30,225 nucleotides of DNA from Oligoflexia bacterium (GCA_035327825.1 DAOLCO010000014.1:1-30225); one strand, 5' to 3'. Numbered from the stretch's first letter, positions 12,760-30,225 are shown. Made by a program: numbers and translations. Notes: a model not told the origin generated them from the letters alone.

Positions 12760-12945
12760 CAGTTAGCAATTCAGCCTAATGGGAGTGTTGCGAAACGGCT
12801 TTTTTAAAAATCATGCATTCAAGATTGGAGAAAAAGGGCTTAGGTAAACTTTTTTGTTTTACTCCTTGGGTCTGGTGATTCCGGGGCCATCCGGGTGTTC
12901 GGGCCTGTTTCACAACAGGCCCCTAATGTAAACTTTTATCCCATA
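12760..12945 (+). repeat. Copy 1 of a dispersed intergenic repeat family (conserved 70-nt block + hairpin GGGCCTGTTTCACAACAGGCCC + TAATGTAAACTTTTAT)
   Basis: Aligns with 14490..14760 at roughly 70-80% identity over the shared blocks. Both start ..GGCTTTTTTAAAAATCA.GC.TTCAAGATT.. and end ..TTCGGGCCT.TTT..CAACAGG..TA..TAA.TTTT. The hairpin core recurs at 20073..20120. Confidence 0.7.
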
Positions 12946-14489: not shown

Positions 14490-14760
14490 CTTAGCTACTT
14501 GTTCTGTTGGTATTGCTAAATGGCTTTTTTAAAAATCAGGCCTTCAAGATTTAATAAGCAGGCATTAGGCAGACTTTTCTTGTTTTATTCCTTGTATACA
14601 GTGCATTTTGTACAGTGCATTGTATGCTGTGCATTTTTGAACCTAAGTTCCGAAAATGCCCCTTCAGATAGTTAACGGGTCATACGGACATCGGCGAGCT
14701 CTCAGTCTAGTTCGCATTCGGGCCTTTTTTGCAACAGGTTCTATATAAGTTTTTCTATTT
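14490..14760 (+). repeat. Copy 2 of the dispersed intergenic repeat family, with a 120-nt insert containing three CAGTGCATT sub-repeats
   Basis: Shares the GGCTTTTTTAAAAATCAGGCCTTCAAGATT...GTTTTATTCCTT block and the TTCGGGCCTTTTTTGCAACAGGTTCTATATAAGTTTTT block with copy 1, in the same orientation. Confidence 0.7.
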
Positions 14761-14824: not shown

Positions 14825-16609
14825 TTAGCTGTTATAAGAAGTAAAAGATGCAACATGTTTTTTATACGGACTTTTGAAATTCTTAATTTGATATAAGTGG
14901 TAGTTATCTTTCTCCATTAGATGAAGTCCTCCTGACGTACTTAGAAACTTAACATATTTGGAATCATTAATTATTTCTCTTATAGCACGTATAAGAATTT
15001 TAGGATTTCTAATCAGAGTAAGCCAGGCATCGCGAATTGCAGCCTCCAGAGCCCTTACTCCGCTGTTATTGCTTGATAGGGCAAGGCTACCAACAAGAAC
15101 GTTTCTTCGGTATCTTTTATCATCGTCAAAATCAAGCTCAAGTTCGCAGCCATTAAATAGTTGGTTAAAATTATAGTAAGGAAACCACTGAATTGCCTTA
15201 ACGTTTTTTTCGCCACTCAAAAAATACGATGTGATTTCATGTGGTGCAGCAAAGGTGAGTTTTGAGTTTCCTTTGGACACTCGCCCATCTTTTAGTAGCT
15301 CCCTATAATATTGCAAAGAACTACTAACCCCATCACCTAACACCAGATGATCTCCAGACTTAAGCGAATCAGATTGCTTCGGGTTCGATTGCTCTCTGCA
15401 TTTACTAACTATCTGAAAGGAAATGTCCGGCATAGACATAACTGCGGTATAGTTTCTAGAGATAGTCTCACATAGTAACTGCGAAAGATGCCCTGTTCCA
15501 AGAATGAATAACTCGCCAGGATGCAGGGAGTACTGCCTCATTTTCTGAAGAATCTCCCCTGCATGGACATATGAGTAGTTGGCTCTAATCGGAAAACCAC
15601 ATATTCGCTCAAGGTAGAATATAAGGGACAATGACCCGATACAGGAAGCGGGCAGGTTGATAATAACCTCGCCACAAAAAGCCTTATCAAGTTCCTTTTG
15701 AATAGCTTTTGAGCTCATGCCCAGGTTTTCACTAGCTCCAATATAACCCCCATTTATGGTAAAAAACTTATCGCTATTTCCAGTGTAGTATTTAAAAATA
15801 GGATCATGAGCCAGCTCCAGCAGTGTTGACTGACTGGAACCTTGGCGGAAAATATGCCTGGTTTTCAAGACCGCTGACAGCTCGTGATAAACCATACCAA
15901 ACAATAATTTTTGGTAACATTCATCGTCAAAGGGAGGTGGATGCGAATTGTCAACTTGCAGTATCTCCATTTCATCATTTGCGAATGCTCTCTTTGTAGT
16001 CTTATATTGTATTTTATCTACGCGTATGATTTTATTATTAATGAATTTCTTTTTAGATATCCGACCATGCTCAAGCATTTCTGCTAAGCACTGTAGTGCC
16101 CCAGGGGCACTTACCTTTATATCATCCAGATATACATCAATGTTAGAGTAGGGCAGATTCTTTGAAGTGACGTATATAGTTACCGGTCCAGGACGTTTCC
16201 GCTCAGGATTATTTCTTTCAAAGATACTCCTCGCCCTGCAACCTCCTTTTTGGTCAATACCAAACATGTTCAGAAGCCAAGGAGATTGCCTGGCCAGAGC
16301 ATAGTCGAACGAAGCGGCCGGTGTTTTTCCTTCTCCCTGTAAACCAATGATGGTAGTCAGTTTCCCATCCGATTTAAGATTTCCAATCACAACCCTCACA
16401 AGGCAAATGGCCATTGCCTTTACTGAGGAGGTCCAGTTAAAAGTGTTACTTGCCATTGTAGCAGAGAACGTTTTGCCACGAACTGAATGCCACTTTTCAC
16501 CAGAATCTCCGGGGGTAAAGATAACCGCATCAAGCTCGGGGGATTTGCCACTTAAAAACCTGAGTTCGATTTTGGGGTCGGGCATGGTTTTCTCGTAATT
16601 TAATCGCAA
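14825..16609 (-). CDS. Large hypothetical protein (594 aa) immediately downstream of, and co-oriented with, the HTH-NACHT gene; candidate partner or effector
   Basis: The ORF is open to a TTG at 16609; the first ATG is at 16585 (MPDPKIEL...). It contains a P-loop-like segment (TTIIGLQGEGKTPAAS), a possible Walker-B-like IDVYLDDI, and two Rossmann-like GxGxxS segments (ELFILGTGHLSQLL, HLVLGDGVSSSL). I recognise no family with confidence. Confidence 0.6.
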   Translation of the reverse strand: MRLNYEKTMPDPKIELRFLSGKSPELDAVIFTPGDSGEKWHSVRGKTFSATMASNTFNWTSSVKAMAICLVRVVIGNLKSDGKLTTIIGLQGEGKTPAASFDYALARQSPWLLNMFGIDQKGGCRARSIFERNNPERKRPGPVTIYVTSKNLPYSNIDVYLDDIKVSAPGALQCLAEMLEHGRISKKKFINNKIIRVDKIQYKTTKRAFANDEMEILQVDNSHPPPFDDECYQKLLFGMVYHELSAVLKTRHIFRQGSSQSTLLELAHDPIFKYYTGNSDKFFTINGGYIGASENLGMSSKAIQKELDKAFCGEVIINLPASCIGSLSLIFYLERICGFPIRANYSYVHAGEILQKMRQYSLHPGELFILGTGHLSQLLCETISRNYTAVMSMPDISFQIVSKCREQSNPKQSDSLKSGDHLVLGDGVSSSLQYYRELLKDGRVSKGNSKLTFAAPHEITSYFLSGEKNVKAIQWFPYYNFNQLFNGCELELDFDDDKRYRRNVLVGSLALSSNNSGVRALEAAIRDAWLTLIRNPKILIRAIREIINDSKYVKFLSTSGGLHLMEKDNYHLYQIKNFKSPYKKHVASFTSYNS

Positions 16610-16804
16610 TTAAAAATTATAGCCAAACACTGCAGTTTGAGTTGTGAGTAGTGGCGTGCGTCAAATACGAAGTTACCGTTTTCTGAAAAGCTAATCAAGT
16701 GCTAAATGTAATTATTGAAAGCTCTAACACTTTGATATTACTATGATCTAGTGGTGGAAAGTCAAAATTTTATAATGTCTATATGGAATTTGAACCTTAG
16801 TGTT

Positions 16805-19708
16805 TTATAAAGGTAAGTCTTTCTTCATAGAAACTGGCGCCAGCATGGACAGCCTTCTTAGTACATTAAAGATATGGTCATACATCGGAGCTCCATACAT
16901 CGAAAAGGGACGAGTATAGTATCGCTCATGTTCTTTATCTAGGGTTCTTTCTGCCTCAAGTTTAAGTAATTTTCGAAAGCACTCCATCAGATGATAGTAT
17001 TGATCTTGAGAAAGGAGCCTTGGAATATCCAGATAAAAATTATAAATAATAGACAGGCGATTACCAAAGGTTATCAGGTCGAATTTGTCTGATTCGCCCA
17101 AGTTAAAAATATAATTGCAACAAGCCTTCAAGCTGTACTTTTCGTTAAGCGGTAAAATTTGTGTATAAAAATCCACTTCCCTGTCAGAATCCGGCAATGA
17201 ACTATGTTTTCTGCCAAGCAAGGAAGCTAGCACCTTAACCTCGCTTCTGTCCTCCGGTACTGTCTGCAAAAGCATATCAAAGCGACCAATCAGGGATTCT
17301 CTTAATTCAATGGGAATGAGATGAGGATGAGTAAATGCTACCTTCAAAAATTGGTGAAAATGCTGTAGATGAGGATAATCGAAATAGATATCGTCAAAGC
17401 ACTCATTCACAATTTTTGAAGTCTTTTGGACTATTCCCTGCATATCCTTGAAGTAAAACAAAGACTCCTGGGTTACAACGAGAGTTGTAAGAACATCCCA
17501 AAGATGCGTACTATCTACACTTTGAGACCTGACGCTATTTTCAAAATCATTTAAAATAAGATTAGCAAATTCATTAATTGAATTGCGAACCCGACTAATA
17601 TCTGCCGACCTGGAATCACTTCTTCGAGAATCATCGTCCAGGGAGAAAATCCTACCTACCTGTCTTATGCTCCAGAATAGACGTCTCATCGAAAGCCTCT
17701 CCTTGGAAGTAATCAAACGAACATCGGTTCTAAATAGGGATATTCCATTGGCTATCTCATCAACAAGAAAATCGCTTCTCATTCCTAACTTTGCTAGCGA
17801 AGAGACAAGTCTCCACTTTTTCTCAATGGGCAGCGAATCAACGTCACCACGCTGAATCTTTGTATAAGCTTGAAGAAAAAACTCTCTCAGTGAAGGAGAG
17901 CCACAATATTCTCCAAGAATATGAAAACTCTCTCGAAGCTCTGTCTCAAAACTGGAGTTCAGGCAGCAGTTAATGAATGGCACAATTATATTATCCCAAA
18001 ACTCTTCAAAATTATAACTTGCTATTGCTCGGGTAGCTGAAAAAAGATTGAAGTGAGTGATGCGTTCCGTCAAATCAAAACCTAAGGCATCATCTACTTT
18101 TAGTAAATCAAGGACGATTTCTCTACCAAGTTGTTCTTCATATTTTCGATCGCTGCGACCAAGTTCCTGAATACAAATAGGCACGATGTCATGCCATACG
18201 GGCAGCCGAAATCGCTCAAGGAGGATATTTTTAATGGACCCCAGATCTCCTATCAGTGCCTTCGCAAAATAAAAGATTCCAAATATATCATCCAGAAATA
18301 CAAATTCTTCAATGACTTTTACTGATCTACTTCGGTGATCAAATGAACGTCGAAGATAAAGAGGACCAATAGAGGTTTTGCTCTCCAGCAGAGCAAGGAG
18401 TCCCGCATTCTCCAAATTTTCAATATCAACCCCCTTACTTTTTAAGAAATCCTCCCAGACTGCCTGTAAATCGCCTCGAGAAAATGCTGGTACTTTATTA
18501 AGATGATAATTTTCCTGTTTTAAATACCAAGATGCGAGATGAACAAGAAACTGACGCTTGCTAAGCCAACTAAATTCACCATACCGCTCTGCTCGGGTTA
18601 GTGTTGTCTCGTAGTAGGTAATTCTTCTTTCGGACCAACTTCGCTCCAATATCTCACAACAAGCATCACATAGTCCCGAAACTTCCTGGAAAGGACGAAT
18701 ACCAAAAGCAGAATATAGCGTTGTTAATAGGTGAAAAAGCAACGGCCACTTTGCAAGTTTGAAGAGAACGTCATTAGATTGAACCATCAACCAGAACTCA
18801 TCAGCATCACTTGCAACCTCCCATGGCCACCTTTGACAGCCTTCAATCATCTGTCGCATGCTCCATGAATCCATGAGCCAGGTAACAAATCCGTTATAAT
18901 GTCTATCTCGAGAATAAAATGCCTCTGGTTGACCAGTAATAATTAACTTGGATCCAGTTAAGCGAACACTACTCTCGTAAATCCTTTGTAAATAAGCCAG
19001 TGTTTCAGCTCTTTTGTAATTACAATTTATTTCATTAAGTCCATCAAAAAGAAGAAGTGCATTACCACGAGAAATGCATTGATCGAAGAATATTCCAAGC
19101 TGTTGCTGAGACCCTTTAAATCCAATATTTATAAAATAGCTTGCAAGTGATGTTGATAGAGAGGCAGGATTGAGTTGGAAATTTTCCAGCGAAACAAGTA
19201 TTGGTACAAATCCTGATCGAGAAGGCGAAACATTGGATAGATTCTCAGTTTCGAGCGCAAGCGTCCGCAGAAAAAAGCTTTTCCCTGATCCCATCGGGCC
19301 CGAGAGCAGAACGGCTCTGTTAGCTGGATCTTCAATGAATTCTTTTAAAAAAGCTTCCCATTTTAATCGGGTTCCGTCTTCCTTAACAAGTTCAGGTGCT
19401 ACCCAGATATCTTTTGCGAGACTGGCAACTGCTGGAACCTTGGGCATAAGGAAGCGAGAATCCCACCACTTGATAAGCTCGCGCATCCAGATAATAAAAT
19501 TCCCTTTATCCTGGGGTATCGGCTGGACTAGTGATTCCACACTTAACCCGTAGAGGTTGGCAAGCTTTTTTGCAATCTCCTGGTTGAGTGGTTTGTGTCC
19601 TAACTCAAGAGCGGAAAGGTATGGATGAGTAACTCCTATACTTGAAGCAGCATTTCTTAGTGAAAGATTTGAATTCTCTCGCGCATCTCTCAGGGTAATT
19701 GTCTGCAT
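16805..19708 (-). CDS. STAND-class NTPase with N-terminal XRE-type helix-turn-helix, central NACHT domain and long C-terminal alpha-helical sensor-like region
   Basis: HTH: ITLRDARENSNLSLRNAASSIGVTHPYLSALELGHKPLNQEIAKKLANLYGLSVESL. NACHT motifs: Walker A VLLSGPMGSGKSFFL, the post-P-loop FVPILVSLENF, Walker B ALLLFDGLNEI, and the sensor-1-like KLIITGQPEAF. About 600 aa of helical sequence follow. The frame is open to a TTG at 19723; the first ATG at 19708 gives MQTITLRDAREN, a typical HTH protein N-terminus. Confidence 0.8.
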   Translation of the reverse strand: MQTITLRDARENSNLSLRNAASSIGVTHPYLSALELGHKPLNQEIAKKLANLYGLSVESLVQPIPQDKGNFIIWMRELIKWWDSRFLMPKVPAVASLAKDIWVAPELVKEDGTRLKWEAFLKEFIEDPANRAVLLSGPMGSGKSFFLRTLALETENLSNVSPSRSGFVPILVSLENFQLNPASLSTSLASYFINIGFKGSQQQLGIFFDQCISRGNALLLFDGLNEINCNYKRAETLAYLQRIYESSVRLTGSKLIITGQPEAFYSRDRHYNGFVTWLMDSWSMRQMIEGCQRWPWEVASDADEFWLMVQSNDVLFKLAKWPLLFHLLTTLYSAFGIRPFQEVSGLCDACCEILERSWSERRITYYETTLTRAERYGEFSWLSKRQFLVHLASWYLKQENYHLNKVPAFSRGDLQAVWEDFLKSKGVDIENLENAGLLALLESKTSIGPLYLRRSFDHRSRSVKVIEEFVFLDDIFGIFYFAKALIGDLGSIKNILLERFRLPVWHDIVPICIQELGRSDRKYEEQLGREIVLDLLKVDDALGFDLTERITHFNLFSATRAIASYNFEEFWDNIIVPFINCCLNSSFETELRESFHILGEYCGSPSLREFFLQAYTKIQRGDVDSLPIEKKWRLVSSLAKLGMRSDFLVDEIANGISLFRTDVRLITSKERLSMRRLFWSIRQVGRIFSLDDDSRRSDSRSADISRVRNSINEFANLILNDFENSVRSQSVDSTHLWDVLTTLVVTQESLFYFKDMQGIVQKTSKIVNECFDDIYFDYPHLQHFHQFLKVAFTHPHLIPIELRESLIGRFDMLLQTVPEDRSEVKVLASLLGRKHSSLPDSDREVDFYTQILPLNEKYSLKACCNYIFNLGESDKFDLITFGNRLSIIYNFYLDIPRLLSQDQYYHLMECFRKLLKLEAERTLDKEHERYYTRPFSMYGAPMYDHIFNVLRRLSMLAPVSMKKDLPL

Positions 19709-20072
19709 ACTTGATAGTTTCAAAATATAAAAGATGGTTTTTATTTTTAGACTTTTTTGATCTCAGTAGAACAGTAAAAAACGTAATTGCGAATTGAATG
19801 AGCAATTACAATTAATTTAAAGACAAAAAGGAGAGCCTAAATAGTTAAGACTAGATCTGGCACCTTATTAACAATACTTGTCTAAGAGGCTTCCGTTTTC
19901 TGAAAACAAGTTACAATTATGATTAAAGTCTCGATTTTGTCAATTTTAACTCTATAAAATTTTATTTCTCTAAAATTTTAATACCCTAAATTTAAATATT
20001 CAGAACCCGTATCCAATGGGCCCGTATCTATGGGGGCTGGTTCAGTTTTAGGATATCTTAATATATTAAATA

Positions 20073-20120
20073 GGGCTTGTTTCAAAACAGGCCCCAAGGA
20101 AATTTTTATAATAAAGATAG
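20073..20120 (+). repeat. Copy 3 (hairpin core only) of the dispersed repeat: GGGCTTGTTTCAAAACAGGCCCC AAGGAAATTTTTAT
   Basis: Same orientation and about 80% identity to the hairpin-plus-tail segment of copies 1 and 2. It lies in the AT-rich region upstream of the HTH-NACHT gene. Confidence 0.55.
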
Positions 20121-22156: not shown

Positions 22157-23134
22157 ATGAAAAACTTTGCTCTAATTGGTGCCTCGGGTTTTATTGCTCC
22201 AAGGCATTTAAAAGCTATTAAGGATACTGGAAATTCTCTTCAAGCTGCACTGGATCCATTTGACAGTGTTGGTATATTGGACAGTTACTTTCCTGATTCT
22301 GCATTTTTTACGGAATCAGAAAGATTCGATCGCCATTTAGATAAAATCAGAAGAACCAATAGTTCCCCAATTGATTTTGTAAGTATTTGTTCGCCTAACT
22401 ATTTGCATGACGCTCATATCAGGCTTGCTCTTAGAAATGGTGCGAATGCCATATGTGAAAAACCCCTGGTATTAAATCCATGGAACGTGGACGCCCTGTC
22501 AGAAATAGAAAGGGAAAGTGGAAAGCGAATTTATACCATATTGCAACTTAGACACCATGACGCCGTCAGGATGCTTAAAGCGCAGGTGTCTGAAGCTCCA
22601 AAAGATAAAACATTTGATGTTGATCTTACATACATTACTTCTCGCGGATTATGGTACGGCAGATCATGGAAGGGTAATGTTGAAAAGAGCGGTGGTATTG
22701 GTACGAATATAGGAATCCACTTTTTTGATATGCTTTGCTGGATATTCGGCGATGTAAGAGAGAGTGTTGTTCACTTAAGTGAAGCTGGTACAGCATCGGG
22801 TTTTCTGTGTCTTCAGAAGGCTCGCGTTCGCTGGTTTCTTAGCGTTGAAAGAGATAATTTGCCTGATCATGTTCGGGAGCTTGGAAAGACTACTTACCGA
22901 AGCCTTACGCTTGATGGTTCAGAGTTCGAGTTTAGTGAAGGGTTTACCGAGCTTCATACTGTGAGCTATAAAAGTATACTTTCAGGATATGGATTCGGCC
23001 TGGAGGATGCAAGAAAAAGCATTGAACTAGCTCATGTGATAAGAAATGCAGAAGCTGTTGGTCTTCGAGGTGATTATCATCCGTTTTTGCTTGAGAATAA
23101 AAGAAAAGTGGTAAATATCAATAGCGGGCGTTAA
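22157..23134 (+). CDS. Gfo/Idh/MocA-family NAD(P)-dependent sugar oxidoreductase (WbpB/WlbA-like)
   Basis: N-terminal Rossmann GxGxxA (LIGASGFIAPRH), the EKP motif (AICEKPLV) characteristic of Gfo/Idh/MocA, and a 325 aa length. Context is next to a WecA-like gene. Confidence 0.75.
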   Translation: MKNFALIGASGFIAPRHLKAIKDTGNSLQAALDPFDSVGILDSYFPDSAFFTESERFDRHLDKIRRTNSSPIDFVSICSPNYLHDAHIRLALRNGANAICEKPLVLNPWNVDALSEIERESGKRIYTILQLRHHDAVRMLKAQVSEAPKDKTFDVDLTYITSRGLWYGRSWKGNVEKSGGIGTNIGIHFFDMLCWIFGDVRESVVHLSEAGTASGFLCLQKARVRWFLSVERDNLPDHVRELGKTTYRSLTLDGSEFEFSEGFTELHTVSYKSILSGYGFGLEDARKSIELAHVIRNAEAVGLRGDYHPFLLENKRKVVNINSGR

Positions 23135-23155: not shown

Positions 23156-23196
23156 AAAAACTAGTGGGCCACAATTTTTGTGGCCCACTAGTTTTT
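23156..23196. terminator. Bidirectional rho-independent terminator between convergent genes
   Basis: Perfect 14-bp stem CTAGTGGGCCACAA / TTGTGGCCCACTAG with a 3-nt loop, flanked by AAAAA on the left and TTTTT on the right. Confidence 0.85.
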
Positions 23197-23213: not shown

Positions 23214-24698
23214 CTATCTGTATCTCTGACTTGCCTTATATAGCGTGTAATTTATATCTGTAAGAACTGGCTCTCCACCCAGGTCTTCATCGTATCCGAG
23301 TACTGCATTACCATTAACTTGTACTGTGTTCGATCTGAGTGCACCATAAAATGAAAAATTTCCCAATAACTCAATTGTGTGCCCCACATTACCGGTTATA
23401 ATTCCATGAAGCGCAGCAGTTCCATTTAATCTCAGTAGTCCTCCTGCAGTTATGTAAATCTCGAGCTGATGTGGCGCCAGGTTTGTTCCAACAAGCTGAT
23501 TGCCATTAATCGATCCGTTAGCAAGGTTATCTATATACAATTGATACTTTTTATCCGGAGTTACAGTGTCAAAGTGAATTCTTGAATTACTGTTATTCTG
23601 TGGCAGCAGGTTTTTTATATAATATGGTTTGTCGGGAGTAGTAAATCGAACACCCCTGTTTGCCCCTATTGATATTGTGTGAAAGCATTGTGAAGCAAGG
23701 GTATCACCTGATGCGATTAGGTGATTAGCACTTGCTGCTGTAATGTTAACTTGAGGAACTCCACCGCAACGATCATCCCAGCTTGGTTCGTTTGGAAGGG
23801 TAAACGAGACAGGGCAGCCTGGGCCAGCACAAACATCACCGGAAACTGAACCTCCATTTAATTGCACCCCATTATTTACAAGGCTTGCAACTGAACCGTG
23901 AATAGCACTTTTCAGGCTTATATTACTTCTACTAGTGATAATACAGTTACTTCTTGGAGCACCTCTTGACCATGTTTGAGTTCCTTCATTCCATGTAAAT
24001 TTATATGACCAACACTGGTTATTAGGCGAGCCTGTGGAAAAAGGAGCGGCCTGACTGTAGTAACCAATTCCACCATTTGCAGTAACAAGTGAGGATTTAA
24101 TAAAGTTAATTCCGTGAACTCCACGTTCCGGATCGGAGCCAGTAACAGCATCAATTCTGAAGATAGGTTGATAATTACCATTTGTTTCAGTGGCCCAGAC
24201 CATGAGGAGTCTTACGCTTACATCGTTTCCAAAGTCCATGCTTTGAAAGGCCGTAACGGGATTAAATGATGCCCCTGTTACAAGATTTGATGTTGTAGGA
24301 AAAGCAGATGATCCGAAGAAAGCATTATTTGTAAGTTGTACAGCTTCGCCGCTCCCTTTCATTTTAACCATGGTAGGAATGATAAAAGCTTCCCCCTGGT
24401 TGCTTGCGCCACTTGGGCTTGAAAGATTAAAATTAGATTCAAATGAATCCTTTTTAAATCCTCCCACCATATTGGCCGAGTTTTCTTGAAGCCATGCAGT
24501 TACTTTATTAATTGTACTTTCGACGTTATAAAAATTCTCAGCGTCTTTTTTTAAGACGTATCGAACCTTATTTGAGCTTTCTGAGGTTTGAAGCATCGAG
24601 GAGCTTACAAGCATTGCAAGACCTGTTAATACCATTACTCCAAGCAGAATATATCCTTTCTGATTATTGTCTTCCTGAATATAGTTTGCCTTTTTCAT
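23214..24698 (-). CDS. PilX_N-like type IV pilus minor component / large pseudopilin-like secreted protein
   Basis: N-terminus QKGYILLGVMVLTGLAMLVSSSMLQT fits the PilX N-terminal domain pattern (Q-R/K-G, hydrophobic helix, then an MQ/LQ motif). The rest is a Gly/Asn/Ser/Thr-rich, beta-type sequence. It is the third gene of the pilin-like operon. 494 aa. Confidence 0.5.
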   Translation of the reverse strand: MKKANYIQEDNNQKGYILLGVMVLTGLAMLVSSSMLQTSESSNKVRYVLKKDAENFYNVESTINKVTAWLQENSANMVGGFKKDSFESNFNLSSPSGASNQGEAFIIPTMVKMKGSGEAVQLTNNAFFGSSAFPTTSNLVTGASFNPVTAFQSMDFGNDVSVRLLMVWATETNGNYQPIFRIDAVTGSDPERGVHGINFIKSSLVTANGGIGYYSQAAPFSTGSPNNQCWSYKFTWNEGTQTWSRGAPRSNCIITSRSNISLKSAIHGSVASLVNNGVQLNGGSVSGDVCAGPGCPVSFTLPNEPSWDDRCGGVPQVNITAASANHLIASGDTLASQCFHTISIGANRGVRFTTPDKPYYIKNLLPQNNSNSRIHFDTVTPDKKYQLYIDNLANGSINGNQLVGTNLAPHQLEIYITAGGLLRLNGTAALHGIITGNVGHTIELLGNFSFYGALRSNTVQVNGNAVLGYDEDLGGEPVLTDINYTLYKASQRYR

Positions 24699-29939: not shown

Positions 29940-30224
29940 TTAGTTAGTTTTAATCAAAAGATTAATACCTTTTTCTGTTAGGCGGTATTTTTGTAAAGGA
30001 CTCTGAGGTTTTTCAGGTAAAGTCATTTCAATTAAACCCTCTTTCAGTGCTGGTTTAAGATATGCACTATGAATATGTGATTTGTCCTTTAAGGAAAGTA
30101 ATTTTCTTATTTCAAAGCTACTTAAATTCCCTTCATTTTTTATGAGAGTTAAAAGATATAAAACCTGAGCGGTGACTGTAGGGGTGACTGTAGGGGTGAC
30201 TGTAGGGGTGACTGTAGGGGTGAC
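29940..30224 (-). CDS. 3' end (last 94 codons) of a gene continuing beyond the window: (TPTV)4-5 linker followed by a C-terminal winged-helix-like domain
   Basis: Minus-strand frame read from the window edge: VTPTVTPTVTPTVTPTVTAQVLYLLTLIKNEGNLSSFEIRKLLSLKDKSHIHSAYLKPALKEGLIEMTLPEKPQSPLQKYRLTEKGINLLIKTN*. The ...IEMT.P.KP.S..QKYRLTEKG... tail resembles the C-terminal wHTH seen on Fic-family and AlbA_2/Schlafen-type ATPase proteins in Bacteroidota-like genomes. The start lies outside the window. Confidence 0.55.
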   Translation of the reverse strand, partial: VTPTVTPTVTPTVTPTVTAQVLYLLTLIKNEGNLSSFEIRKLLSLKDKSHIHSAYLKPALKEGLIEMTLPEKPQSPLQKYRLTEKGINLLIKTN

Positions 30225-30225
30225 T
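30169..30225. repeat. Tandem 12-nt repeat (GGGGTGACTGTA)n, at least 4.75 copies, truncated by the window end
   Basis: A degenerate first copy GCGGTGACTGTA at 30169, three perfect copies, then a partial fifth. In frame within the partial minus-strand CDS it encodes (TPTV)n. Confidence 0.9.

Follow-up and report, generated by a model that had tools for sequence, protein, structure and literature searches.

Bacterial NACHT proteins, which resemble the nucleotide-binding leucine-rich-repeat receptors (NLRs), are read almost by default as antiviral sensors. What, then, does a NACHT protein do when its N-terminus is a DNA-binding helix-turn-helix (HTH) domain and a second large gene of no recognisable family follows it? 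The question is raised by a 30,225-nucleotide stretch of DNA from an Oligoflexia bacterium (GCA_035327825.1 DAOLCO010000014.1:1-30225), here called the window, in which both genes lie on the minus strand, separated by 195 bp (16610..16804). The HTH-NACHT protein is probably a nucleotide-switched transcription factor of the STAND class that controls both its own gene and the downstream 594-residue gene through an 18-nt site, and its family is a candidate counter-example to the antiviral default. An earlier reading of this DNA (the sequence-only reading) had left two alternatives: a defence system with the downstream protein as an effector supplied in trans, or a regulator of the downstream gene. 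The second is supported by a conserved operator-like site at both promoter regions and at other loci of the family; for the first, neither a PADLOC match to Avs or bNACHT systems nor a defence-island context was found.

Among the 40 open reading frames (ORFs) of at least 80 amino acids (aa) in the window, both genes were found by ORF listing and translation where the sequence-only reading had placed them, and all four motifs that it had quoted (GPMGSGKS, FVPILVSLENF, LLLFDGLNEI and LIITGQPEAF) are present in the translation. The gene pair and its control regions comprise the following features:

14825..16609, minus strand: gene for a two-domain cytoplasmic protein, 594 aa from a TTG start (586 aa in the public call, P0015)
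14930..15922, minus strand: C-terminal type-2 periplasmic-binding-protein (PBP2) fold of the NrtA/SsuA/TauA class, aa 230-560, no signal peptide seen
16067..16582, minus strand: N-terminal domain of ~170 aa (N-domain), aa 10-181, with an invariant NPERKRPGPV motif, separable in hmmsearch
16672..16689, minus strand: operator-like site 2, TTTTCAGAAAACGGTAAC, 62 nt upstream of the TTG start of the 594-aa gene
16805..19723, minus strand: gene for the HTH-NACHT STAND protein; a TTG start gives 972 aa, and the public gene call (P0001), which begins at the ATG at 19708, gives 967 aa
16808..18148, minus strand: C-terminal ~445 residues, presumed sensor region, no recognisable family
18149..19318, minus strand: NACHT module (nucleotide-binding domain, helical and winged-helix region), aa 136-525, from PF05729 and an hhalign alignment to XssQ
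19526..19696, minus strand: HTH of the XRE or Cro/C1 type, aa 10-66 (Pfam HTH_3 at aa 11-63; HTH_31, E 6.7e-7)
19889..19906, minus strand: operator-like site 1, TTTTCAGAAAACGGAAGC, before the HTH-NACHT gene; its start is 10 nt downstream of the best sigma-70-like match
19916..19943, minus strand: promoter-like site upstream of the HTH-NACHT gene, TTGACA, 16 nt, CATAAT, 11 of 12 matches in a consensus scan (a consensus match only)

The HTH-NACHT family is small. A collection of 5.8 billion sequences holds only 14 members, which are 963-990 aa long, can be aligned over their full length and are 26-45 % identical to the window protein. The named members come from metagenome-assembled genomes (MAGs) of Oligoflexia, Bdellovibrionales or 'Deltaproteobacteria'; P0001, from an Oligoflexia MAG, is identical to the window protein. 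Pfam confirms the N-terminal Cro/C1-type HTH that the sequence-only reading had named (HTH_3, E 1.1e-9), and when the family profile was compared with PDB sequences, only HTHs of the XRE type were matched (DdrO, ClgR and SinR). Conservation within the family peaks in the HTH, with a mean pairwise identity of 55 %; the NTPase follows with 45 %. The C-terminal region aligns across the family with few gaps, but identity falls to 23-32 % in the C-terminal third of the protein, and a Pfam scan of the C-terminal ~450-600 residues finds no repeat family, in agreement with the earlier observation that a repeat signature is absent there.

The NACHT assignment holds for the family as a whole. In the Walker A motif (GPMGSGKS, aa 142-149), residues G142, G145, G147 and K148 do not vary among the 14 aligned members. 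The description of the window protein as a textbook NACHT was overstated, because on its own it scores 22.0 bits against PF05729, under the curated cut-off of 26.7 (AAA_22 gives 28.0 bits). The class itself was named correctly: PF05729 matches all 14 members at E <= 0.01 (best 1.9e-11), and hhalign aligns the family profile with residues 196-562 of XssQ at a probability of 97.7 % (E 2e-12, 335 columns). This alignment continues through the predicted helical and winged-helix extension (residues 301-525), including a conserved WPLLFHLL block. The NACHT Walker B signature has been defined as D[GAS]hDE (Kibby et al., bioRxiv 10.1101/2022.07.19.500537). Thirteen of the 14 members carry it as LLLFDGLDE; the window protein reads LLLFDGLNE, with N in place of the first acidic residue (residue 230, codon 19033-19035) and the small residue and the terminal E unchanged.

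The 972-aa protein joins an XRE-type HTH to a NACHT NTPase and to a presumed C-terminal sensor peculiar to the family. If it works like XssQ, MalT, GutR and AfsR, a signal sensed by the C-terminal region would drive nucleotide-dependent oligomerisation, which would change the occupancy of the DNA site.

A precedent for such a protein is XssQ (slr5058, WP_011153595.1), encoded on plasmid pSYSM of Synechocystis sp. PCC 6803. This STAND protein with an N-terminal HTH activates the xss genes for sulfated exopolysaccharide (Maeda et al. 2021, PMC8205485). Its action through a short consensus site was shown by knock-out, over-expression, quantitative PCR and RNA sequencing, and electrophoretic mobility shift assay (EMSA), and it was called 'a new type of STAND protein' (PMC8205485). 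When plasmids were searched by tblastn with the window protein, it hit the XssQ gene on pSYSM, annotated as 'NACHT domain-containing NTPase'; in Pfam, XssQ matches NACHT (5e-11) and NCH2. Both proteins have an N-terminal HTH followed by a homologous NACHT module. Both are associated with a short conserved site in promoters, proven by EMSA for XssQ and recognised here as an operator-like motif in the sequence. Both also have envelope or polysaccharide surroundings: GT4, GFO/IDH/MocA, GT1 and pyruvyl transferase genes in the window; GT2 and ATP sulfurylase/APS kinase genes at another family locus, L005. The two are nevertheless not orthologous, as neither the N-terminal HTH regions (the first 100 aa of XssQ) nor the C-termini align. 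XssQ has 783 aa and ends in NCH2, whereas the window family has ~970 aa, an unrelated C-terminus of ~445 aa and no NCH2. XssQ acts below the two-component pair XssS/XssR, which is absent here; its site is AAGTTXXAC rather than TTTTCNGAAAAYGGTAAC, and it belongs to cyanobacteria rather than Bdellovibrionota. HTH-NACHT transcription factors are a known kind of protein, represented by XssQ, and the window family would add an independent variant to that kind.

GutR (B. subtilis), MalT (E. coli) and the AfsR/SARP-LAL proteins are further STAND transcription factors, whose activation depends on ligand and ATP. They share the plan of DNA-binding domain, STAND NTPase switch and C-terminal sensor, and in GutR the HTH is also N-terminal. 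In contrast to the window family, their NTPases belong to other STAND clades (MalT-type, AP-ATPase-type) and their DNA-binding domains are of the LuxR or SARP type; no sequence relationship to these proteins was detected beyond the P-loop. Taken with XssQ, the window family suggests more than one bacterial origin of 'transcriptional NLRs', in this case with an XRE-type HTH, another sensor region and in another phylum. This rare NLR-like family of predatory-type bacteria (Oligoflexia/Bdellovibrionota) most likely acts as a gene switch, and no tested feature marks a known antiviral system.

The operator-like site and its distribution

As its output the HTH-NACHT protein has a DNA-binding domain, and the conserved operator-like site makes a putative regulon directly testable. 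The site is an 18-nt motif, TTTTCNGAAAAYGGTAAC, found upstream of both window genes; it was first flagged by a repeat search as a 24-nt match between the two upstream regions. Within the window it has two matches, against 0.11 expected. The idea that the two upstream regions are a duplicated promoter segment was rejected, since the 18-mer is all that they have in common. A reading of the motif as a sigma-54 or extracytoplasmic-function-type promoter element was also rejected on inspection, as it forms a single contiguous block and occurs in both orientations.

The distribution of the motif was determined by a fuzzy search for TTTTCAGAAAACGGTAAC with up to three mismatches over 912 kb, including the upstream DNA of all family genes; the counts cover nine family loci, with the loci of P0003 and P0014 and one copy of P0013 left out. 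In eight of the nine (the window, L001, L002, L003, L004, L005, L007 and L180), the 18-mer precedes the HTH-NACHT gene or the operon that contains it, and within the 912 kb it is confined to HTH-NACHT loci. The L180 locus was fetched after the motif had been defined, and the region upstream of its HTH-NACHT gene contains a site with one mismatch. All three homologues of the 594-aa gene that lie on HTH-NACHT contigs (the window, L001 and L003) have the motif at most 90 nt upstream of their start. The copies outside the window are:

L001 9471-9488: before the SnoaL_2 gene that precedes the HTH-NACHT gene
L001 12986-13003: before a 582-aa homologue of the 594-aa protein
L002 9871 and 9943: two copies
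L003 1348: one copy
L003 13671-13688: inverted, 32 nt before a 594-aa-type gene, one mismatch in the 12-nt core
L004 1664-1681: perfect match, inverted, 182 nt upstream of an AsnC-type/HTH-NACHT/radical-SAM operon
L005 9930: one copy
L007 5579: one copy

Control DNA gives a different picture at the same threshold. No match occurs in ~745 kb of loci (Bdellovibrionota-type MAGs) that carry 594-aa-type or N-domain genes without an HTH-NACHT gene, and one occurs in 934 kb of generic NACHT loci, which are metagenome-scan results matching the HTH-NACHT alignment through a generic Walker B pattern (aa ~135-430). The exact core GAAAACGGTAAC is found five times in 141 kb of family loci versus zero times in 1.68 Mb of controls; with one mismatch allowed, the counts are 10 and 8. 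In many copies the site is longer, GGTAACCATGG(TTAC), and a palindrome, TTTTC-N-GAAAA, makes up its left part.

The proteins at the motif loci are only 31-45 % identical to the window protein, so alignable flanking DNA is not expected. The motif stands in both orientations (inverted in L004 and L003) and at 23-343 nt from the start codon. Orientation independence, variable distance, restriction to family loci and conservation of the HTH together argue for an operator of the XRE-type HTH over a promoter element; the most conserved region of the protein is matched by a conserved DNA target. From this co-occurrence, we infer that the HTH most likely recognises a conserved site of ~18-22 bp, TTTTCNGAAAAYGGTAAC. 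The copy at its own promoter implies autoregulation by the HTH-NACHT protein, and the position of site 1, 10 nt downstream of the promoter-like match, would suit autorepression. The copy before the 594-aa gene points to a member of a local regulon rather than an obligate protein partner.

Two further elements lie in the same upstream regions. AT-rich 16-nt tandem repeats (TAAAATTTTA-type palindromes, 2.5-2.8 copies) occupy positions 19942-19998, directly upstream of the promoter-like -35 hexamer, and a similar element, AAAATTTTGAC, lies upstream of the 594-aa gene (16757-16767). Their role might be that of an UP element or of an additional binding site.

The downstream gene and its relatives

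The sequence-only reading had treated the pair as a two-gene module. This was too strong. Neighbourhoods were read for 11 distinct family loci, the window and ten others, and a 594-aa homologue is found near the HTH-NACHT gene in three of them (the window, L001 and L003). It follows the HTH-NACHT gene directly only in the window and in L001, which is the closest relative (45 % identity) and has different flanks; in L003 it lies 9.4 kb away, at the contig end. In the other direction, none of 59 further loci with 594-aa-type or N-domain genes has an HTH-NACHT gene within 8 kb. The linkage is real but facultative, as these two counts show. Three independent-looking co-occurrences within 10 kb are far above chance, for both families are rare and the genomes measure a few megabases. 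The 594-aa gene would accordingly be one among several alternative local targets within the family.

The genes found next to the HTH-NACHT gene differ from locus to locus. At L002 the neighbour encodes a 716-aa coiled-coil protein, and at L005 and L180 proteins of 246 and 720 aa, respectively. L003 has a methyltransferase-like gene and then one for an aminotransferase; at L008 the neighbour is a 93-aa ORF of the other strand, after which comes a peptidase-like gene. At L004 (1864-6949), the HTH-NACHT start overlaps the end of an upstream 383-aa double AsnC/Lrp-type gene, a radical S-adenosylmethionine (SAM)/SPASM protein gene follows, and an AbiEii-like/DUF6922 gene pair adjoins the locus; the AsnC-type and radical SAM genes presumably resemble the siroheme-decarboxylase/AhbD-type genes of haem biosynthesis. 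The neighbours at the P0003 locus are proteins without known function, and the gene list of the P0014 locus holds small Pfam-annotated enzymes and no called gene of 594-aa size. Overall, the neighbours in family loci are housekeeping, envelope, biosynthetic or metabolic genes, or genes without an assigned function.

Two loci show arrangements of their own. At L005 (5479-9808; also L006), the HTH-NACHT gene is divergent from an 893-aa triple-GT2 gene and stands beside the ATP sulfurylase/APS kinase gene, a context that recalls the sulfated-polysaccharide setting of XssQ. At L007 (5620-10831), two tandem HTH-NACHT paralogues, 40 % identical, are 17 nt apart, with the operator-like motif before the first only.

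The 594-aa protein had been described as lacking a recognisable family. This is correct as far as annotation goes: it has no match in Pfam, NCBIfam or PADLOC, none of 45 relatives scanned has a Pfam match, and none of ten looked up has a name. It is not an orphan. The view of a near-orphan, which followed from word-indexed searches with three or four relatives, was overturned by an exhaustive HMMER profile search, which returned 1,175 representatives of clusters at 50 % identity, 587 of them at E < 1e-30 and mostly 500-600 aa long. The gene thus exposes a large unannotated family of ~1,175 clusters, with no Pfam entry and no solved structure.

The C-terminal half of the protein also has a recognisable fold. 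In an AlphaFold2 model built from a 45-sequence alignment (mean predicted local distance difference test score, 85.6), the C-domain is predicted as two alpha/beta lobes with the topology of the NMT1/SsuA/NrtA class, and a BFVD search with the structure returned only PBP2-type matches, none of them for the N-domain. Comparators of the NMT1/SsuA/TauA class include the cytoplasmic NrtA-like regulatory domains (the NrtC/CmpC C-terminal domain, PDB 9uai), from which the C-domain differs in being only 7-15 % identical and in having no Pfam match of the NMT1 type. Some PBP2-fold proteins are enzymes (THI5, MqnD and DszB), so an enzymatic role for the C-domain is possible. Overall, the protein would be built like a one-component signalling protein, with an N-terminal output or adaptor domain that is expanded in Bdellovibrionota and a cytoplasmic NrtA/SsuA-like domain for small-molecule binding.

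The N-domain has no match in Pfam, PDB sequences or PADLOC, and its prediction is mixed alpha/beta. A genome scan with a 16-sequence subset sharing NPERKRPGP, which samples members with that exact motif, gave 60 loci, with 3-5 loci each in several genomes. The named lineages are MAGs of Bdellovibrionota, Bdellovibrionales, 'Deltaproteobacteria' or 'Proteobacteria/Pseudomonadota'; because the scan was limited to one exact motif, this picture may be biased towards Bdellovibrionota. An hmmsearch over the scanned ORFs found ~55 stand-alone copies of 167-228 aa, about a dozen copies with the PBP2 C-domain, seven with other C-termini (no Pfam match) and three fused N-terminally to nSTAND1 (E ~1e-95) and FGE-sulfatase domains (L018, L055 and L071). 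The N-domain links one-component-like PBP2 proteins, stand-alone proteins that are possible targets of proteolysis, and nSTAND1-FGE proteins, and it could clarify the N-termini of predicted conflict systems.

Several observations concern the N-domain relatives themselves. The three fusion loci (L018:2010-8561, L055:2033-8576 and L071:247-6838) share a same-strand set of a phosphoribosyltransferase-like gene (~240 aa), the N-domain-nSTAND1-FGE-sulfatase gene (1182-1281 aa) and a SIS-domain gene (~371 aa), with a divergent stand-alone N-domain gene beside it; these proteins have no PADLOC match. The C-terminus of most stand-alone N-domain proteins (171-200 aa) reads ...LAA or ...AA-COOH (EQIAA, QSLAA, GELAA, AKAA, LRAA, QHLAA). 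Examples from the L016-L071 set, by locus, are:

L018:7980-8561: stand-alone N-domain gene
L021:1448-2011: stand-alone N-domain gene
L027:2402-2974: stand-alone N-domain gene
L063:7983-8552: stand-alone N-domain gene

By analogy with the SsrA-type ClpXP degron, these tails suggest that the stand-alone proteins may be proteolytically unstable; the 594-aa protein of the window has no -LAA-type tail. At L056:3217-13995 and L038:242-7357, 3-5 N-domain genes lie within 10 kb among genes for SAM-dependent methyltransferases, a SET-domain protein and a cytosine/purine permease; a methyltransferase-like gene also recurs after the HTH-NACHT gene of L003. A ~500-aa protein family (20 % identity, E 3e-7) without a Pfam match is found near 594-aa-type genes at two unrelated loci (L003:9675-11240 and L009:7164-8624).

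Gene switch or defence system

Many bacterial NACHT proteins protect against phage, and DNA-binding N-termini are among the architectures listed for them (Kibby et al., bioRxiv 10.1101/2022.07.19.500537). The window family shares with antiviral NACHT and Avs proteins a NACHT core with a Walker B region of the D[GAS]hDE type, from which the window protein itself departs (DGLNE), and the tripartite layout of output, NTPase and sensor. The HTH-NACHT protein might accordingly be an immune sensor with a transcriptional output, in the manner of CIITA: its C-terminal region, the most variable part of the protein, would sense an invader and, through the same operator-like site as in the regulator model, switch on the 594-aa gene as a conflict gene, with the N-domain as effector or adaptor. 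Several features of the N-domain are consistent with this. nSTAND1-FGE proteins are predicted conflict systems, with the N-terminal domain as effector or adaptor (Kaur et al. 2021, PMC8195603; Doré et al., bioRxiv 10.1101/2023.09.22.558884). The N-domain resembles such an effector-associated domain (EAD) or output domain: it occurs on nSTAND1-FGE proteins, alone and on other proteins, often at the same locus, and its family is multi-copy with variable fusions. It differs from described EADs, which are small and mostly helical, in its size (~170 aa) and mixed alpha/beta composition. The link to nSTAND1-FGE proteins is the reason why a role in conflict keeps a small but real share of our belief.

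The loci themselves argue against immunity. PADLOC is blank for both window proteins, for the 14 family members and for the N-domain relatives; none of the 14 matches Avs or bNACHT, and the matches that do arise concern only the HTH (HTH_VI, RmrA, capH) or a bare P-loop. Most family loci have no integrases, transposases or known defence genes. Among the loci read, a small sample, neither a defence island nor a mobile-element context was seen, and the AbiEii-like pair beside L004, a point in favour of an immune role, is the only defence-like neighbour. The G+C content is ~0.40 across the gene pair, equal to that of the flanks. The genes adjoining HTH-NACHT genes vary, most of them having metabolic functions (methyltransferase, aminotransferase, radical SAM, SnoaL); the one fold recognised in the 594-aa protein is of a ligand-binding type; and viral contigs gave only generic NACHT NTPase matches and no relatives. 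In contrast to antiviral NACHT proteins, the family is small, conserved over its full length and limited to one lineage, with no enzymatic effector and no defence island. The chromosomal envelope and metabolic context, the even composition, the lack of defence neighbours and the XssQ precedent together favour physiological signal transduction, and the immune sensor is unlikely, although worth keeping in view. A broader form of the idea is likewise unlikely: the protein would be a bacterial NLR whose response to danger or to an invader inside the cell is transcription instead of a fused toxin, as one CIITA-like input of a new immune or cell-fate network throughout Bdellovibrionota. If it were true, the gene switched on would carry an undescribed output domain of ~170 aa, common to nSTAND1-FGE 'antigen-receptor' proteins and dozens of stand-alone -LAA-tailed copies.

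Physical coupling, in which a NACHT oligomer recruits the 594-aa protein in trans as the effector of a classical two-protein STAND defence system, is highly improbable. The genes do adjoin, co-oriented and 195 bp apart, and the pair is kept in L001 despite different flanks. Recruitment of the homotypic kind would need a common adaptor domain, and none is seen when the two family profiles are compared (hhalign probability 1 %). The arrangement with the same adaptor on both partners does occur elsewhere, between nSTAND1-FGE proteins and neighbouring stand-alone N-domain copies; the window pair departs from it because the HTH-NACHT protein has no N-domain. Neither an enzymatic effector nor an EAD- or Death-like adaptor was detected on the HTH-NACHT protein, whose N-terminus is the XRE HTH, and the 594-aa protein, whose fold suggests ligand binding, not a toxin, showed no signature of an enzyme or a pore-former. 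Most family loci are unpaired, as are all 59 of the other 594-aa or N-domain loci. Finally, the 594-aa gene has its own operator-like copy, which indicates transcriptional rather than physical coupling. It is also rather improbable, if less so, that the two genes are unrelated neighbours and the motif is the site of another regulator or part of a lineage-specific promoter. Most HTH-NACHT loci do lack a 594-aa homologue, and most 594-aa homologues lack an HTH-NACHT gene. Yet the motif tracks the HTH-NACHT gene in eight of nine loci with otherwise unrelated flanks, is essentially absent from the 1.68 Mb of controls, to which Bdellovibrionota-type MAGs contribute ~745 kb, and stands in either orientation, a freedom that a promoter element would not have.

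Control by an HTH-NACHT switch has points against it as well. The bacterial NACHT proteins characterised so far are mostly antiviral (Kibby et al., bioRxiv 10.1101/2022.07.19.500537), so prior odds do not favour a housekeeping regulator. The DGLNE sequence of the window protein may alter the NTPase cycle by slowing NTP hydrolysis. L008 has no motif, though its operon reaches the contig edge and the promoter may lie off the contig; the best L180 site is 343 nt from the NACHT start and adjoins a divergent gene. The sample is nine loci, and some motif copies may share ancestry, the window and L001 being closest relatives. The motif could also be the site of another factor.

Other features of the window

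The remaining genes of the window encode envelope functions: a pyruvyl transferase, an ABC-2/GldG-like set, PBP1A and a VWA protein, as well as two glycosyltransferase-type enzymes (a GT4 sugar-phosphate transferase and a GT1) and an oxidoreductase of the GFO/IDH/MocA type. Beside the pair, a 408-aa protein has a signal-peptide-like N-terminus in translation; neither it nor a 123-aa ORF has a match in Pfam, NCBIfam or PADLOC. Scans of the 596-nt region upstream of the HTH-NACHT gene (Rfam, tRNA and tandem repeats) found no RNA gene.

The pair had also been described as bracketed by a dispersed repeat. The repeat search places one copy on the 3' side of the 594-aa gene:

14508..14760, no strand assigned: intergenic repeat of ~170 nt ending in a hairpin

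The other full copy is at 12783..12945, and the copies are 78 % identical over 76 nt, with the hairpin GGGCCTGTTTCACAACAGGCCC in addition. Only the hairpin part (GGGCYTGTTTCANAACAGGCCC) recurs upstream of the HTH-NACHT gene, at 20073..20095. That recurrence stands, but the two full copies flank the 408-aa gene, not the pair. The element is probably a terminator or of a kind like repetitive extragenic palindromes or miniature inverted-repeat transposable elements, and nothing points to its membership in a module with the gene pair.

Two more repeats were noted. A perfect 19-nt inverted repeat with a 3-nt loop (23156-23196) lies between the convergent genes 22157-23134 and 23214-24698 and is probably a bidirectional terminator. 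At 30171-30225, a perfect 12-nt tandem repeat, GGTGACTGTAGG, runs for 4.6 copies and continues past the window end.

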